Shown here: positions 16,178 through 56,513 of the stretch, in pieces
How positions within the stretch are numbered: the first letter of the stretch is position 1
Layout of the letters: every line of letters begins with the position of its first letter
Assembly: GCF_004010195.1 (NCBI RefSeq)
Contig: NC_057718.1
Span: 92,088,039-92,144,551, forward strand
Origin: Chiloscyllium plagiosum
Lineage: Eukaryota
Direction of reading: 5' to 3'
Length of the DNA stretch: 56,513 nucleotides
Made by a program: the position numbers and the translations under genes
The notes under the pieces: generated by a model
Database searches by the model: none
Told to the model about the DNA's origin: nothing
Seen by the model: the letters and a program-made list of their open reading frames with translations, nothing else

Positions 16178-16880
16178 AGAGTCAGAGGTCTACAACGTGG
16201 AAAAAGGCCCTTCAGCCCAACTTGCCCATACCGCTCAGTTTTCACAATTAAACCAGTCCCATTTGCCTGTATTTGGTCCATATCCCTCCATATCTATCCC
16301 ATCCATGTAAATGTTTCTTAAATGGTGAAATTGTACTCACTTCCACCACTGCCTCTGGCAGACCATTCCAAACACTCACCATCCTCTATGTGAAAAAAAT
16401 TGCCCTTCTAGATCCTTTTGTGTCTCTCCCCTCTCACCTTAAACCTATGCCCTCTAGTTTTAGACTCCCCTACCCTAGGCAAAAGTTGTTGGCTATCTAC
16501 CTTACCAATGTCTCTCATTGTTAAAAAACACACAACACCAGGTTATTGTCCAACAGGTTTATTTTTAAATACTAGTTTTTGGAGCGCATAAACCTGTTGG
16601 ACTATAACCTGCTGTTGTGTGATTTTTTTTAACTTTGTCCACCCCAGTCCAACACCAGCACCTCAACATTATGTCTCTCATGATTTTATAGACTTCTGTA
16701 AGGTGACCCCTCAGTCTCCAACACTCCAGGGAAAAGACTCCCAGTTTATCTAACCTCACCTTATAGCTCAAACCTTCCAGTATAGGTAGCATCCTAGTAA
16801 ATCTGTTCTGTACTCTTTCTAGTTTAATGATATTCTTTCTATAGTAGGGTGATCAGAACTGCACGTAGTATTCCAAATGT
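16178..16880 (-). mobile_element. CR1 3' fragment, interrupted at 16519-16670
   Basis: Minus-strand MLPILEGLSYKVRLDKLGVFSLE..RLRG.LTEVYKIMR is the CR1 ORF2 C-terminus, followed by the 3' UTR. Confidence 0.88.
16519..16670. mobile_element. Fold-back Penelope-derived mini-element (family B) with an 11-bp TSD
   Basis: TSD atgtctctcat at 16508-16518 and 16671-16681; inverted arms at 16520-16562 and 16588-16633; same family as 38387-38543. Confidence 0.85.
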
Positions 16881-17645: not shown

Positions 17646-18245
17646 GCATTTTTTAGAAAGATAAGTGATTCCATCCTCAGATAAACTGCTACTTGTTGCC
17701 AACTGGTGCATTTTCATATTGATAGAAAATGTGTAAAAATATATCAGACATTCCAATAATGAAGTTTTTTATGTATGTTTGGTAATTTTGTATCAATTTA
17801 ATTCTTAGTGTTTAAAAGAGTAACATATAGAAAAAAAATAGGAGCAGGAGTAGGAAATTCAGTTGTGCAGACCCTAAACTCTGGAATTCCCTTGCAAAGC
17901 CTCATGGCCTCACAACCTCTCTTTCCTCCTTTAAGGTGCTGTTTCGAAGCTGCTGTTTGACCAAGCTCTCCGTCATATTTCCTAATATCGCTTTATATGC
18001 CTTTGATAATCACTCCTGTGATGTGCTTCGGGACATTTTACTATGTTAAATAAAAGTTATTGTTACTGTTTTTGTTTTATATTTCTTATTTATTGATTTA
18101 TGCTTTATTTACAAGTAAAACTATTAGGTTACTATTAGGATGCCTGATATATTTTTACACATTTTCTATGTACATGAAAAATGCACCAGATGGCGACAAA
18201 AAGCAATTTATCTCAGGAAAGAATTATTTATCTTTCTAAAAATGC
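17646..18245. repeat. Long imperfect inverted repeat (~113-bp arms: 17646-17758 and 18133-18245), possibly an old MITE
   Basis: gcattttttagaaagataa...ttgttgccaactggtgcattttcat...atagaaaatgtgtaaaaatatatcag is mirrored as its reverse complement at 18133-18245. Confidence 0.85.
17870..18065 (+). mobile_element. L2-like LINE 3' end fragment
   Basis: ctaaactctggaattccct...ctctttcctcctttaag...tttgaccaagct...cctgtgatgtgcttcgggacattttactatgttaaa; related pieces at ~5400-5510 and ~33520-33710. Confidence 0.6.
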
Positions 18246-23008: not shown

Positions 23009-23311
23009 CTCCTGCATGTGTAGGTAAACCCAATAGCCATTTGGTCATTAAAACTCATACCAACAACAAGGAGCTCAATGACTTATTATATTGGTGTGCT
23101 AAGTAAGTATTTTATGATATAAATTTTATTTATGTACCTTAGCCTAGTTTGTTTAAAGCACTGTTATGAAGTAATATTCTTGATGGTCAATCCAGCAGGA
23201 GATACTATTGATGTAACACAGTCTAAGATATTCCCTACTATAAAATGCATATAATTATATTAGTTGCTCTGCGATTTTCACTCACATCATATAAGCAATG
23301 TTCAAAGTCAA

Positions 23312-23760
23312 AGAATGTGGTGCTGGAAAATTAGAGTCGGTCAGGTAGCATCCGAGGAGCAGGAGAATCAACATTTCAGGCATAAACCCTTCATCATGAA
23401 TGAGGCTTGTCGGCCAAGGGGGCGGAGAGATAAATGGGAGGTTGGTAGGGGTGGGGGAAAGGGAGCTGAGAATGAAGTAGTTAGGTGAAGGTGGGGGTGA
23501 AATTGATATTTTGGAGAGGAGGGTCAAGCTGATAGCTGGGAAGGAAGATGGACAGGTAGGACTGTTCAAGAGGGCGGTGGGTAGGTTGGGACTGGGATAA
23601 GGTGGGGAGAGGGGAAATGGGGAAACTGATGAAATCCACACTGATTCCACGTGATTGGAGGGTCCCAAGGCAGAAGATGAGGTATTATTTGTTCAGGCGT
23701 TGGGTGGTTAGGATGAGGCATTCTTCCTCCAGGTGTCCATGAGGGGTTCTTCCTCCAGTC
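23312..23760 (-). mobile_element. Penelope-like element 3' end (family A): endonuclease C-terminal remnant plus terminal repeat
   Basis: Minus-strand 23623-23712 translates to LTTQRLNK*YLIFCLGTLQSRGISVDFISF (resembles the Penelope GIY-YIG C-terminus), followed by a CT-rich UTR and tgatga-agggtttatgcct-gaaa-tg-tt. Confidence 0.8.
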
Positions 23761-24397
23761 CTCACTTTCTCCAAGCAGTGTTCAATGTTTGGTGTTTGTA
23801 AGGGCTACATATATCTTATTTGGAAATATGAATTGGAAAAAAATCAATTTAGATTATTAATTGTTATGCTTTGCAACTTGAAGTAAAATGGAACTGTGTA
23901 GTGTTCTTCTGCTGAAATCAAATTTAAATATTTTTGAAGGACCTGCTAACACCAGTAAAAGCTTGTGGATTGGTTATAAGTGGCAGTTTGTCGCAGAACT
24001 GGGAGGAACAAGAGAAAGAGCGGTTGGAATTCAGATTTCCAAAAGCCTTCCAGCAAGGAAGATTAATCTCTCATTCGCTTTCTGTGAGCGGAAGAGAAAT
24101 AACACTCAAAGACTTTGCAAAAGAGAAAGAAGTCTTGACTCAAAACTAGAACCAAGTCTAACTGACAGTTACTGAATTAAGGATTGTGCCATTGATAACC
24201 ATATATCACTAGAACCCAAAAAAAAAGAACTGTCATGAAGTCACCTCATGCATCTCTTCTTGGCCTGGATTCTGACCCACAGATTTTGTGCCTTTTTTGA
24301 TTACATTTTCCACTCATGATATTACTGCAAAAACTGTTCATCTCAACTGTCCTGTACTACATGTGAATGAAAGTGTGTGTGTTTGGATTTAAAGATG

Positions 24398-37416: not shown

Positions 37417-37539
37417 GATGAAGGGCTTATGCCCGAAACATCGATTCTCCTGCTCCTCGGATGCTGCCTGACTTGCTGTGCTTTTCCAGCACCACACTCT
37501 TGACTCTGATCTCCAGCATCTGCAATCCTCACTTTCTCC
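37417..37539 (+). mobile_element. Penelope-like terminal repeat (family A) starting inside the hammerhead core
   Basis: gatga-agggc-ttat-gccc-gaaa-ca-tc-gattctcctgctcctcggatgctgcc. Confidence 0.85.
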
Positions 37540-38386
37540 CTGTGCACATGCACAGTTTGGAAGAATAAGTCAGAGGGGAACATGCACAGTCGGCATTTAT
37601 CACTGAATTGTCAGTGTCAGCAGCCTATCTGTATTTTAAAACTCTGACCCCAAGTTCTAGAACATTGGTTAAGAAGCTTCAGTATCTTTTTTTTAGGATA
37701 CTGATTTTTTAAGATTTTAAGATATTTTAAGATATTGCAAGTTCTTTCTAAGAACAGAATTCCTAAGTTTTTACATCATTGACAGGCTTCTCTGGTGGCC
37801 TCACTCCCCTGTCTTTTCCCTCCCAAATAATGATCCAATTCCCGTTTGAAAGCCACAATTAAATCTGCCCTCAGAATGTTGTGGGTGCTTCATTGCTGAG
37901 TGTGCATAAGTGTGGAGTGTTTTCATTTCGTAGAGAATCAATGGATGTGGGGAGCAGGCAGGATGGTGGATTTGAGGAAAAATATCAGCACAAATGCATT
38001 GAATAACAGAGCAGTCTTAGTTGGAATAAAGGTGAGGGTGTTGGGTGGGTTGAGTGGGAGTCAATTGGACGCATATGATTTGTTTCCACTTCTAGTTCTC
38101 TAATCATACTTTTATATTCCAGATTCTAAACACTCACTGTGTTAATACAAGATTGACCTTTACTATTTATCCTTAAGAGAGACCGAAGGGGCAACTTTTT
38201 TCTTGCAGAGGATGGTGTGTGTATGAAATGAGCTGCCAGAGGAAGTGGTGGAGGCTTGTACAATTATAACATTTAAAAGGCATCTGGATGGGTATGTGAA
38301 TGGAATAGAATAGGATATCCTTTATTGTCACGTGTACTCCAGTACAGAAGTACTGTAAAAACTTTTACAATGACTGCTTTTAACAG

Positions 38387-38543
38387 AGTTACAAATCACA
38401 CAACATCAGGTTATAGTCCAACAGGTGATGAAGGAGCGGCGCTCTAAAAGCTAGTGCTTCCAATTAAACCTGTTGGACTACAACCTGGTATTGTCTGATT
38501 TGTAGCTTTTACACCCCAGTCCAACACCGGCATCTCCAAATCA
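38387..38543 (+). mobile_element. Fold-back Penelope-derived mini-element (family B) with a 12-bp TSD and a decayed hammerhead core
   Basis: TSD tgcttttaacag at 38375-38386 and 38544-38555; inverted arms flank gTGATGA-aggagc-ggc-gctct-aAAA-gc-TA-gtg. Confidence 0.85.
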
Positions 38544-38896
38544 TGCTTTTAACAGCACCATCTTAGGTACAAGTGTCCAGATACAAATGTTGGATACAAA
38601 AGAGAATTAAAAGGAAAAGTAGGAGCATTGCTTACAGTGAGTAAAAATAAGTTTAAGATAAGGTAGATGTAACAGAGTTAAAGGATTTACATGACAGTCC
38701 GGTAAAGAGTTTCAAATAGCATCAGCTGAACACATGGTCGGAATGCCAGCACGAAGCCAGAGTCCAATAACTTTTCCGGTCCCCTCCATCCTCCAACCGG
38801 CTCCACACTGGCACTCAACTGCAGCAAGATATACCCACCCCGCTGGACTGGGATTCACCTCCTTCACGTTACACCAGGACTTGGGTCTCTCCCCAT

Positions 38897-40017
38897 CCTG
38901 CTCCTGTACCGGGATTACCCCTCACCCTGCTCCTGTACCCAGGATTCCCCCCTCACCCTGCTCCTGTACTCGGGATTCCCCCCCTCACCCCGCTCCTGTA
39001 CTCGGGATTCCCCCCCTCACCCCGCTCCTGTANNNNNNNNNNNNNNNNNNNNNNNNNNNNNNNNNNNNNNNNNNNNNNNNNNNNNNNNNNNNNNNNNNNN
39101 NNNNNNNNNNNNNNNNNNNNNNNNNNNNNNNNNNNNNNNNNNNNNNNNNNNNNNNNNNNNNNNNNNNNNNNNNNNNNNNNNNNNNNNNNNNNNNNNNNNN
39201 NNNNNNNNNNNNNNNNNNNNNNNNNNNNNNNNNNNNNNNNNNNNNNNNNNNNNNNNNNNNNNNNNNNNNNNNNNNNNNNNNNNNNNNNNNNNNNNNNNNN
39301 NNNNNNNNNNNNNNNNNNNNNNNNNNNNNNNNNNNNNNNNNNNNNNNNNNNNNNNNNNNNNNNNNNNNNNNNNNNNNNNNNNNNNNNNNNNNNNNNNNNN
39401 NNNNNNNNNNNNNNNNNNNNNNNNNNNNNNNNNNNNNNNNNNNNNNNNNNNNNNNNNNNNNNNNNNNNNNNNNNNNNNNNNNNNNNNNNNNNNNNNNNNN
39501 NNNNNNNNNNNNNNNNNNNNNNNNNNNNNNNNNNNNNNNNNNNNNNNNNNNNNNNNNNNNNNNNNNNNNNNNNNNNNNNNNNNNNNNNNNNNNNNNNNNN
39601 NNNNNNNNNNNNNNNNNNNNNNNNNNNNNNNNNNNNNNNNNNNNNNNNNNNNNNNNNNNNNNNNNNNNNNNNNNNNNNNNNNNNNNNNNNNNNNNNNNNN
39701 NNNNNNNNNNNNNNNNNNNNNNNNNNNNNNNNNNNNNNNNNNNNNNNNNNNNNNNNNNNNNNNNNNNNNNNNNNNNNNNNNNNNNNNNNNNNNNNNNNNN
39801 NNNNNNNNNNNNNNNNNNNNNNNNNNNNNNNNNNNNNNNNNNNNNNNNNNNNNNNNNNNNNNNNNNNNNNNNNNNNNNNNNNNNNNNNNNNNNNNNNNNN
39901 NNNNNNNNNNNNNNNNNNNNNNNNNNNNNNNNNNNNNNNNNNNNNNNNNCCCCTCTCCCCTCCCCTGTGCCCGGGATTCCCCCTTTCTCCACTCCTGTAC
40001 CCGGGATTCCCCCTGAC
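38897..40017. repeat. 29-32-bp C-rich minisatellite (cc[t/c]gctcctgtac[t/c]cgggattcc(c)ntcac) flanking an assembly gap
   Basis: At least four units before the gap and two after it. Confidence 0.9.
39033..39949. other. Assembly gap (917 N)
   Basis: Run of N. Confidence 1.
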
Positions 40018-44599: not shown

Positions 44600-45015
44600 G
44601 AAAGAAACAAAATACTGCAGAAGTTGGAGATCTGAAATAAAAGCAGAAAGTGCTGAAGTAACTCAACTGGTCTGCTAGCATTAGATTAGATTAGATTCCC
44701 TACAGTATGGAAACAGGCCCTTTGGCCCAACCAGTCCACACCAACCCTCTGAAGAGTAACCCTTCCAGACCTATTTTCCTCTGACTAATGCACCTAACAC
44801 TATTGGCAATTTACCATGGCCAGTTCACCTGACCTGCACACCTTAGGACTGTGGGAGGAAACCGGAGCACGCAGACACAGGGAGAATGTGCAAATTCCAC
44901 ACAGTCAGTTGCCCAAGGCTGGAATCAAACCTGGGGCCCTGGTGCTAACCACTGAGCCACCATGCTGGGAGAAACAGAGTTAACAATTCATTTCCAATAT
45001 GACTGTTCCTCAGAC
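44600..45015 (-). mobile_element. Penelope-like terminal fragment (family C) split by an HE1-like SINE (44682-44966, minus strand, (ttaga)n tail)
   Basis: aaatactgcagaagttggagatctgaaataaaagcagaaagtgctg...gcat | SINE | gagaaacagagttaac...gactgttcctcag (a decayed core). Confidence 0.75.
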
Positions 45016-46185
45016 ATTCAGTTTTGATTATATGCACTTACAGTTAAGTTCTTAGAATGTGATGGGAGTAAATGTAAAAGCTGTCATTCATATTCAGCAG
45101 GAGCAAGCTTCTCTTTAAATGTAATGTAGTCGGGAATAGGTAAGGTAAAGTTGCCATAGTCTTCCCAGACCATGGGCTATTCTTTTGTTAGAGGGAGGTG
45201 ACTAGTGGTGATTTTACCTAAGGGTCAGCACACCTCAGAGAATTGTCTTCCTCAGGGAATAACCATGTCAGCACACAGTTGTTTATAAATCATTAACAAA
45301 TAATTTCTGTTAAGTCACATTTTTAAAGTGTTTAACTTTCTGTACATGGTTTTAAATCTGCTAATGAAATTTGAGTTTAAAACAATATAAAGACTTAATC
45401 TGTTTAGCATCAAGTTCGGACACGTTCCTTAGGAATAAATGGTTTGGTCATTTCATGTCACAGTGTAAGTGCCAGCAAACCCTAACAATGCCCACCAGGT
45501 GTCACTCTCCCATTTTCTGAACATCTAATGGAGTAAATGCTGTTTACCTGCATTTGGGCAATGAGAATGAATTGATTGTTTGCTCAGTTGATATTCAAAC
45601 AGAGAGTCAATTCATGAGTGCTGAAGATAGAAGAAATTGAATTGATAGAACTATGGAATGGCCATTCGGCTCTTCATGTGTAAACTGACTCTCTGCAAGA
45701 GCAGCAAGCCCTTCCTTTCCCCATAAGTAGCAGATTTGCATGAAGTTATGAAATGTAAAAATGTTACTGTGATATGTGTGAAGTGGTCTCAGTACGTCCT
45801 GCTTTTTTGACCTAAATTTGTACATAGGGGAGGCATGTGATTATCTTGCTCCTGTTTCACTGCCACGTAATAGGCACCTCGGGGGTAAAGCTCATTCTGT
45901 GTCAGAAGTGTGCTGGCCTCCATATTGGAATGGGTTCCTCCATAACAATATGTGTTGGAAGAAGCTAAGAGGCTTATGATCAGATATTTAAATATCAACA
46001 TTAGTTGTTTGGACCCTTGTGTGAAATTGAGCTGCCCCAACAACTGACTCACCATGTAATCAACCCTCCCAGCGATGTAGGCCACTCAAAAGAAAGTCCT
46101 CCATCTCAATCCCCACATCAAAAAAGCTACTGTGTTTACCTAAAAAGTTAAAATGTTTACCACGTCCATGAAGTCAGTTGTGGAA

Positions 46186-46372
46186 AAAGTGAGGACTGCA
46201 GATGCTGGAGTACCAGAGTTGAAAAATGTGGTGCTGGAAAAGCACAGCAGGCCAGGCAGCATCCGAGGAGCAGGAGAATCGACATTTCGGGCATAAGTCC
46301 TTCTTCAGGATTCTCCTGTTCCTCGGATGCTGCCTGGCCTGCTGTGTTTTTCCAGCACCACATTTTTCAACT
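46186..46372 (-). mobile_element. Fold-back Penelope-derived mini-element (family A)
   Basis: 64-bp inverted arms at 46217-46280 and 46309-46372 (62/64 complementary) around a 28-nt hammerhead core. Confidence 0.9.
46273..46316 (-). ncRNA. Minimal type I hammerhead ribozyme motif
   Basis: Minus strand: ggagaatc-CTGAAGA-aggac-ttat-gccc-GAAA-tg-TC-gattctcc; one stem II mismatch and a CG>TG change in the stem III palindrome. Confidence 0.7.
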
Positions 46373-46394
46373 GTTGGATTATTGTATTAAGCCT

Positions 46395-46497
46395 AGTTCT
46401 GAGGAAGGGTCACTTGACCTGAAATGTTAACTCTCATTTCTCGTCACTGATGCTGCCAAACCTGCTGAGCCTTTCCAGCAATTTCTGCTTTTTGTTG
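46395..46497 (+). mobile_element. Penelope-like terminal fragment (family C) with a hammerhead motif at 46395-46432
   Basis: agtt-CTGAGGA-agggtc-actt-gacct-GAAA-tg-TT-aact, followed by gatgctgccaaacctgctgagc.tttccagcaatttctg. Confidence 0.75.
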
Positions 46498-53189: not shown

Positions 53190-54009
53190 GTGGGTTTGCT
53201 GAGAGAGGGGTTAATTGTCACTTGAAGCTGAGAGAGCGTTGGAACCAACTTAGCGAACCAACCCAAGCATGCAGGTATTTTAAATGATTCTGAAGGCAAA
53301 TGGAATGTTGTTGCTTATTACAAGGAGAATTACATTTAAAAGAAATGAAATTTTGCTGCAGATGTATAGTGAGACCACATTTACATTTAGTTTTGGTCTG
53401 CTCAATTTAGAAAGAAACAGAATGCAATAGAAAGAGCTCCGAGATGTGCACTCATTTGATTTCTGGGATGAAGGGATTTTCTTACAAGGTATGTTTGGGC
53501 CAGTTAGAATGATGTGCTTTGGAGTTTAGAAGACTGAGAGATGATCTTGTTGAAAAAGTAAGATTCTGAGAGGACTTGACAAGGTAGATACTAAAATGAT
53601 GTTGCTCCTTGTGGGAGAGCTTAGAACTAAGTTGCATAATTTTAAAACATGTTGTCTCCCTCTTACCATGGAGATGAGGAGAATTTTTTTCCCGAAGAGA
53701 AAACTGTGAAAGTTTCTTTACAAGAGACTAATATAAGCTGGGTAATTGAACATTTTAAAGGCACTTTTTAGAAGACTGAGAGATGATCTTGTTGAAAAAG
53801 TAAGATTCTGAGAGGACTTGACAAGGTAGATACTAAAATGATGTTGCTCCTTGTGGGAGAGCTTAGAACTAAGTAGCATAATTTTAAAACATGTTGTCTC
53901 CCTCTTACCATGGAGATGAGGAGAATTTTTTTTCCCGAAGAGAAAACTGTGGAAGTTTCTTTACAAGAGACTAATATAAGCTGGGTCATTGAACATTTTA
54001 AAGGCACTT
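53190..54009 (+). mobile_element. Old CR1 3' fragment
   Basis: gaaggcaaatggaatgttg...ttgctgcagatgtatag...gagtttagaagactgagagatgatcttgttgaaa...gagatgaggagaattttttt. Confidence 0.75.
53525..54009. repeat. Near-identical 242/243-bp tandem duplication
   Basis: 53525-53766 vs 53767-54009; I count about three substitutions and one indel. Confidence 0.95.
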
Positions 54010-54782: not shown

Positions 54783-56349
54783 TTTAACATTTGTTTCAAT
54801 ACGAGTAAGAACAGCAGGATTTACTAAGTTTTAAGTTCTAAGAATTATGAAGTACTGTAGGAAAAGATCTCAAATCTACAGCTTTCGGTTTTTTCCCCCC
54901 CCGTCATTTCTTTCTTCAAACGTATTTGTGAAAATGCCACACATTACGGCTCAACTTTGACATCACACAGATTGCAATTCAGATTAGATTCTTGCAATTA
55001 AGTACATAAAGTGCTTCGTTACTCTTGCTGTCACAATTATATTCACAAAATGCATTTATATTTGATGTCAAGTATCCTCTGTTGTGTATATCCTAAGGGG
55101 TTTTAAACGGTTTCCAGTCCCTCAGTGTATGCAAGTGTGAGGGTCTTACACAGTGCCCTTTACCCATTGACCCTTCACAGCACTGGCCCCAAGCTTTAGC
55201 GCTTTCTCACTACACGGTCCTGACTGTTAGAAAGTGTTCATCTTCTACAGTCAGTCATCAACAACTCTTTGTTTTGGAAGAGTTGCAAGTGTTGGGAGAA
55301 AATCAAAATGCATCCTTTATAAGTTGTGGGAGCTCCCAGTTCCTTTTCTATGAATCTGTGGTGTGAGCAAGTAATCGATTCAATATCAGCTTGATGCTGG
55401 AATTTGTCTTCAGGCTAGTGTTAAGATTTCCACCTCTGAGTTAGACTGAGTTATAAGGTTCCAAATTGCAATGCCAACAGTCTTGGTAAATGACAACTCG
55501 AGCTCCAAGCTGTGTGGAATTCATGTCCCAGTGTACAGTGGATGCTGGGACTTTGGGTAAGCACAAATGCTTACATCATCTGCAGCTCCTAAATCAGGCA
55601 AGATTTTAGATGAGAGGTTAGCAAGCTGTAAGAAAGGTGATGAGGGAAGGCAATACCATCATTTTCTGCTCAATGATTGACCATGATCTCAGCAAAGACA
55701 ACTTCAATCACCGTTTTCTCCATGGGAGCTAAGATATGCTGTTGGGTTTGACCTCTTCTGGTTAATTCCTGCTGCATTGGAGTCTACACCACTTTCTTCT
55801 GCAGGAGAGGAGGAAGTGTGTTGGTGAGTGTCATGCAATCTGTTTGGCCAAAGTGGCTGTCATTGGTGTACCCCGTGCCTTAGTAGAGCTTAAGAATTTT
55901 CAGCTTTCAATGGAAGCGACCAAACTGCCTAGTGCACTGAACAATTGAAAATAAAGAACTAAAGTTGACAGTTCTCCTGGTGTATCTGTGTTTTTCTAGT
56001 TAAGGAAGTTTGCAGGATTGTTCTCCAGGCTGACCTGTTGATCATGATCTCAGCCATGACAATGGAGGATGTTGACAACTGTCCTCCAGAGGTTAAGGAG
56101 CAGAATGCTAATGAACACTTAGCACTTATGGCCATTGTCCATTGACCATCTGAATATGGAGATATCAAAATGGCAAAAGAATCATGAACCACTGCAATAT
56201 CCCATGATCAGACAATCTACTCAAAATAACCTTTCAAGATTCACATGTGAATAAAATCTAGTTGAGCCATAATTAGTACCCATGGAACTGCACCCCACAA
56301 AGATATCTTCAGAACAAGAGCAGGGAAATTGGCAAGTGGGAGAACTGGG

Positions 56350-56513
56350 CTGAAAAATGTGTTGCTGGAAAAGCGCAGCAGGTCAGGCAGCATCCAAGGA
56401 GCAGGAGAATCGACGTTTCAGGCATAAGCCCTTCTTCAGGAATGAGGAGGGTGTGCCAAGCAGGCTAAGATAAAAGGTAGGGAGGAGGGACTTGGGGGAG
56501 GGGCGTTGGGAAT
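56350..56513 (-). mobile_element. Penelope-like element 3' end (family A), cut by the window edge
   Basis: Same layout as 23312; CpG sites are retained. Confidence 0.85.
56407..56444 (-). ncRNA. Minimal hammerhead ribozyme motif with an intact core
   Basis: Minus strand: cattc-CTGAAGA-agggc-ttat-gcct-GAAA-CG-TC-gattc; the ACGT palindrome is intact and stem I is weak. Confidence 0.72.

Follow-up and report, generated by a model that had tools for sequence, protein, structure and literature searches.

The hairpin at 46182-46372 of the window (the whole 56,513-nt stretch of Chiloscyllium plagiosum DNA analyzed here) has the layout of an ordinary insertion of a Penelope-like element (PLE), a reading to which we give a probability of about 0.9. 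The insertion, of a Penelope-like terminal repeat, was likely a single event and is likely dead. In PLEs, an inverted 5'-truncated copy stands next to a tail of 30-40 bp at one end only (PMC8557442; PMC3846280). The corresponding features are found here: an inverted 5'-truncated copy, a 35-nt tail at one end, and the motif of a terminal-repeat hammerhead ribozyme. With the insertion units of EN+ PLEs the hairpin shares head-to-head arms of which one carries the tail, strong 5' truncation, microhomology at the 5' junction and a hammerhead in the terminal repeat; it differs in measuring 191 bp, in having no ORF and no clear target duplication, and in a join in the register of stem I, which we did not find discussed in the accessible text of those papers (PMC8557442; PMC3846280; PMC11167929). 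The hairpin is one of very many stubs of a kind already described, and its value is that of a data point. The abundance of its family means that a census of junctions could test whether the cut site, stem I or only the 5' end of the RNA shapes PLE insertions.

Structure of the hairpin and its hammerhead core

The two 64-bp arms are complementary at 62 positions, the mismatches being 46242/46347 and 46270/46319, and the 28-nt loop between them reads CTGAAGA-A-GGAC-TTAT-GCCC-GAAA-TG-TC on the minus strand (Table 1). Arms and enclosed core are as the preliminary description had reported them; the start of the unit, which it had placed at 46186, has to be moved to 46182, since the left arm overhangs the paired part by 35 nt and the whole unit therefore measures 191 bp. 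With +1 set at 46280, next to the predicted cut, the outer end of the long arm lies at +99 and that of the short arm at +64. The minus-strand fold of 46210-46385 has a predicted energy of -126.6 kcal/mol (z -19.6), equaled by none of 200 shuffles, and the hairpin is predicted to be strong on either strand; by a crude estimate, about 1e-26 such pairs of arms would be expected by chance. The 35-nt asymmetry of the ends departs from the symmetric terminal inverted repeats and fixed target duplication of the MITE type. Target duplications are optional in PLEs. No exact target-site repeat of at least 5 nt flanks the unit, and a 4-mer duplication of the GTTG type also arises at 48 of 2000 random boundary pairs.

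Table 1. Features of the hairpin locus and of two related copies in the window (strand refers to the forward sequence)
Feature	Position	Strand	Remark
35-nt tail, +65 to +99	46182-46216	-	long arm only
Long arm, +1 to +64	46217-46280	-	pairs with short arm, 62/64
Minimal type I hammerhead core, CUGAAGA-A-stem II-GAAA-UG-UC	46281-46308	-	sequence, comparison with copy at 56351
Predicted hammerhead cut	between 46281 and 46280	-	position of motif
Junction microhomology GA, 2 nt	46309-46310	+	common to ordinary upstream sequence and start of short arm
Short inverted arm, sense copy of +1 to +64 without core and tail	46309-46372	+	
Weak candidate target-site duplication, GTTG	46177-46180 and 46373-46376	+	
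Ordinary copy of the family, 74 nt of upstream sequence retained	56351-56513	-	reference for read mapping
Longer family copy, inverted tail piece at 5' end, 13-bp target duplication (1 mismatch)	23293-23785	-	

Positions within the hammerhead follow the conventional numbering. The core boxes of minimal hammerheads and the bulged nucleotide before stem II are present in the loop. Searches of Rfam, with E<=1 for the window and E<=10 for the core, gave no hammerhead family, and the motif was therefore assigned by eye against the published description of minimal hammerheads (PMC4209133); Rfam matches to miRNA families merely reflect the hairpin shape and were discarded. Like the minimal hammerheads of metazoan PLEs, the core has the CUGANGA and GAAA boxes, an extra nucleotide before stem II, the G10.1-C11.1 pair and no true helix III, with a palindromic 15.2-16.2 in the family copies; in contrast to them, helix I extends over 64 bp rather than 4-5 bp, the 4-bp stem II carries a mismatch and the stem III palindrome is altered (PMC4209133).

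The core departs from its family at two paired positions. One is a C>U change in stem III (CG>TG) at 46284, which is a CpG site and accounts for 12% of depth in X1, one of the DNA runs surveyed below. The preliminary description had recorded this change and overlooked the other, an A.C mismatch at 46298 relative to the copy at 56351, by which stem II is no longer intact. The self-pairing 4-nt duplex is predicted at +2.6 kcal/mol here against -1.7 in the copy at 56351, and 15.2-16.2 is not palindromic. Helix III is limiting in minimal hammerheads, which are able to cleave as dimers and need the dimer; activity is low even so (PMC4209133; PMC6765202). The 64-bp helix I would probably not replace the missing helix III, and from its sequence the ribozyme core appears to be damaged and inactive. 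In the RNA run, a poly(A) single-cell library and thus of an unsuited type, no pile of molecule ends was seen on the reference copy.

The repeat family and its ends

The family was surveyed with the reference 56334-56513 at 80% likeness in contigs assembled from three DNA runs of three species and in the raw reads of one RNA run from the first of these species. It is very abundant: matches to the 180-bp reference came from 108,211 contigs in one DNA run and from 83,923 and 121,374 in the other two (about 313,000 in all, with X1 and X19 counted in part), next to 3,139 RNA reads. Neither the viral contigs nor the prokaryote genomes searched contained a match to the family patterns. Four metagenome matches (L001-L004) were dropped; their GC content is 53-63%, and the likeness in L001 extends over 50 nt at 78%, that in the other three over about 20 nt.

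Seven family ends from the window were printed, and they fall into two classes: three are long, three lie at +63/+64, and one (2886) is long but diverged. The long ends share the same TCC and belong to the long arm of the hairpin (46182), to the inverted piece at about 23753-23772 and to the copy at 37417-37539; those at +63/+64 belong to the short arm of the hairpin, the copy at 23303 and the copy at 56351. Both outer ends of the hairpin are thus represented elsewhere in the family. In the copy at 23293-23785, the inverted piece comprises about 20 nt from the tail end, and the tail sits on the inverted side.

The upstream part of this longer copy resembles the decayed end of an ORF (45 residues, 23619-23753), which may be like the C-terminus of a PLE protein. 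It had no match in Pfam or in a homolog search, apart from a single protein match that was repetitive and spurious. Pfam and homolog searches found no RT or GIY-YIG sequence linked to the hairpin's family, and Pfam gave nothing for the 7 of 49 stop-to-stop frames of the window that were searched, four of which adjoin the hairpin. The layout and the motif make it likely that the family belongs to the PLEs.

In each of the three DNA runs, the family's 5' ends cluster 3-5 nt before CUGA, at 56442-56444, among the ends listed (24 of 850), with 477, 548 and 469 contigs in X1, 554 and 451 in X13, and 582 and 504 in X19. The peak at 56443 is the A of TCATTCC on the minus strand, presumably an initiator (Inr)-like element. 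Upstream sequence is left in two copies, those at 56351 and 23303; TCATTC is conserved in both, with TTTATC about 30 nt further upstream. As judged from these genomic ends, the 5' strand of stem I may be where the family RNA begins. The Penelope pseudo-LTR also contains an initiator, although its start lies further upstream of the ribozyme (PMC2377424). Loose ends listed at 56434 were set aside as probable clipping at a subfamily letter (56435 T>A).

Other remnants lie close to the hairpin. At 46399-46481, 26 nt to its right, the plus strand contains a decayed end that bears a hammerhead and belongs to a more distant family (about 72% identical), and there are further decayed pieces near 44639-44684 and 45013.

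Origin of the inversion joint

On the plus strand after the core, ordinary copies read GAATGAGG and the hairpin locus reads GATTCTCC; the first two letters are identical. This GA fits both sides of the junction, which can be placed in three equally good ways, one of them with the short arm starting at the cut site. The earlier statement that the arm begins at the first base after the cut corresponds to this one placement. A part for stem I in the join is supported, in that the join uses the two letters of its pairing. By definition, the 5' strand of stem I complements the bases that follow the cut, and any join made through this pairing is in register and looks as if it started at the cut site. 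The register follows from the complementarity of stem I, and the coincidence with the cut site thus needs no cleavage. Microhomology of stem I plausibly shaped the join. We found no description of inversion junctions in stem I register in the literature, a weak negative as most subscription papers lie outside the coverage of the search.

As to how the arms were made, we lean towards two cDNAs, extended from two nicked target strands and joined at their 3' ends via the 2-nt complementarity of stem I. The template RNA would begin about 4 nt before CUGA, at the Inr-like TCATTCC, as the genomic ends suggest. A first cDNA would run from the outer site at +99 to the 5' end of this RNA and yield the long arm with tail and core, by analogy with the published insertion mechanism (PMC11167929); a second would start at the inner site at +64, stop at +1 to +3 and yield the short arm. 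The two ends would then join through GA/TC, a pairing that is present in the sequence; as this pair is that of stem I, the product falls automatically into stem I register. After insertion, the core differs from the family at the two paired positions described above. In twin-priming of L1, two primed strands are likewise joined by microhomology to give a 5' inversion; here, in contrast, both arms copy the same region, from two fixed internal sites. PLEs have two start sites of reverse transcription, and the 35-nt difference between the arms fits these sites and the 30-40-bp tail (PMC8557442; PMC11167929). In an Anolis element, the tail lies between the two sites, and each strand of the target is cut and then extended (PMC11167929).

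The joining of two cDNAs is favored by the long end at +99 and the short end at +64, which match the two end classes of the family, and also by the pile of family 5' ends, the positions of the opposite-strand joints listed and the differing junctions of the fold-backs in the window. Several observations count against it. The 11-13-bp target duplication seen at the other three fold-backs of the window is absent, the mismatch at 46270 is a common variant that fits two different templates or conversion, and the letters shared by the arms fit a single cDNA equally well. Both arms share five letters in which they differ from the copy at 56351, one of which makes up 1.7-2.2% of the depth, depending on the DNA run. 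A shared letter this rare (about 2% of family depth) indicates that both arms came from one minor source lineage. Of the two mismatches between the arms, that at 46270 is widespread in the family (23% of depth in X1) and the other is uncommon (4%), a combination that does not separate two RNAs from one.

A single cDNA may instead have snapped back, its 3' end folding via stem I and copying its own tail, which is the template switch of the preliminary description. We consider this unlikely, even though the junction lies in exact stem I register, the five subfamily letters are common to both arms, and self-priming from palindromes has been argued for at inverted junctions (PMC3846280). The pairing available to such a fold is only 2 nt, and an extra step is needed to halt copying exactly at the inner end. 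Since the short arm stops at the family's inner end (+64), a second priming event suits it better than a free template switch.

The survey of joints bears on this question as well. On the reference, the hairpin junction corresponds to 56439-41 joined with 56411-09. Among the 15 joints listed of 73, eight are opposite-strand and comprise 67 contigs (30, 15 and 22 in the three DNA runs). Their short arms start at +3 to +6 in 36 contigs and at +17 to +19 in 31, in several registers, and the start sites of both groups bear GA; the long arms end at -2 to -5 in 56 of the 67. Stem I register is seen in four contigs (0, 1 and 3 per run), at a slightly different point, and the remaining 63 are out of that register, which speaks against the snapping back of one cDNA. 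The exact junction of the hairpin is absent among these listed joints in the three DNA runs. X1 and X19 were counted in part, and junctions that are young or symmetric are probably lost from assembled contigs, so that these frequencies should not be read as rates. Independent inversions with a joint near stem I are seen in each of the three species. A second inversion hotspot lies at 56393-56395 (+17 to +19, GGATG), away from the ribozyme stem; its sequence is more like the cDNA end GGAATG than that of stem I is.

It is more doubtful still that the ribozyme had cut the RNA from which the short arm was copied, so that its 5' end lay at +1, and that the resulting cDNA was joined via stem I to one made from an uncleaved partner. 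A start of the arm at +1 is a possible reading, the 36 of 67 contigs mentioned above start within 6 nt of the cut site among the joints listed (15 of 73), another listed joint lies at 56412 and includes five extra letters, and cleavage of minimal hammerheads as dimers is possible (PMC4209133; PMC6765202). The starts listed (15 of 73 joints) are nevertheless at +3 to +6 and not at +1, and the cluster at +17 to +19 (31 of 67) is about as large. No pile of loose ends is found at the cut site, 56411/56412, among the ends listed (24 of 850), and depth declines smoothly there. The PLE ribozyme is dispensable for insertion in vitro: the Anolis element PAc inserts even when its ribozyme is mutated, and none of the RNA reads has its end at the cut site (PMC11167929). 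If cleaved RNA were nonetheless the source, the cluster of junctions at +1 to +6 would be a genomic record of hammerhead cleavage during Penelope insertion, and the 5' end of the uncleaved partner RNA would be the 5' strand of stem I.

Mobility of the hairpin and other fold-backs in the window

The preliminary description had seen in the locus a Penelope-type minimal hammerhead in an inverted terminal arrangement, which stands, and had proposed further that the non-coding ribozyme-in-hairpin unit might be mobilized on its own, like a retrozyme or a MITE. We regard a non-autonomous unit amplified in this way as very improbable. The strength of the hairpin on both strands speaks for it. The window, however, holds one copy of it, a single unit with asymmetric ends, no tandem and no second ribozyme, and the core is damaged at two positions. 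No amplified joint is found among the 15 listed of 73: each is represented by 1-7 contigs per run, and the depths add up to 16-318, compared with about 15 million for the core in X1, depth not being equivalent to copy number. On these listed joints, a family of modest size that carries the hairpin's junction is possible. The inner start site is also buried in the fold, the mean unpaired probability of +55 to +64 being 0.01 in the hairpin and 0.99 in the long arm alone, which by this prediction would make hairpin RNA a poorer template. Non-LTR retrozymes are likewise non-coding, carry a type I hammerhead and are linked to PLE pseudo-LTRs, but they consist of direct tandem units with a ribozyme each (bioRxiv 10.64898/2026.07.22.740005); a single inverted unit with one damaged core was accordingly not assigned to them.

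That the hairpin arose by a later rearrangement (break repair or a replication fold-back at an existing copy) or is an assembly chimera, for which the absence of a clear target duplication might speak, is scarcely credible given that both outer ends match the two end classes of the family, that the arms differ at two sites and that similar joints occur in independent runs from three species.

Self-comparison and inspection revealed four fold-back insertions in the window (46182-46372, 23293-23785, 38375-38555 and 16508-16681), whose junctions all differ. The other three carry target duplications of 11-13 bp, and the hairpin has none of this length. The fold-back at 38375-38555 belongs to another hammerhead-like family; its arms (38390-38426 and 38468-38504, 33 of 37 positions) enclose a 41-nt loop with most of the core, and it has a one-sided tail and an exact 12-bp target duplication. 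The one at 16508-16681 is of the same family without the core, with arms at 16523-16562 and 16588-16627 (37 of 40) and an exact 11-bp target duplication. An inverted pair of about 110 bp (17650-17758 and 18133-18242, 85%) is separated by about 375 nt. An assembly gap of 917 bases (39033-39949) is flanked by a tandem repeat of about 31 nt, and a direct duplication of 169 nt at 99% identity (53525-53693 and 53767-53935) represents either a recent duplication or an assembly overlap.
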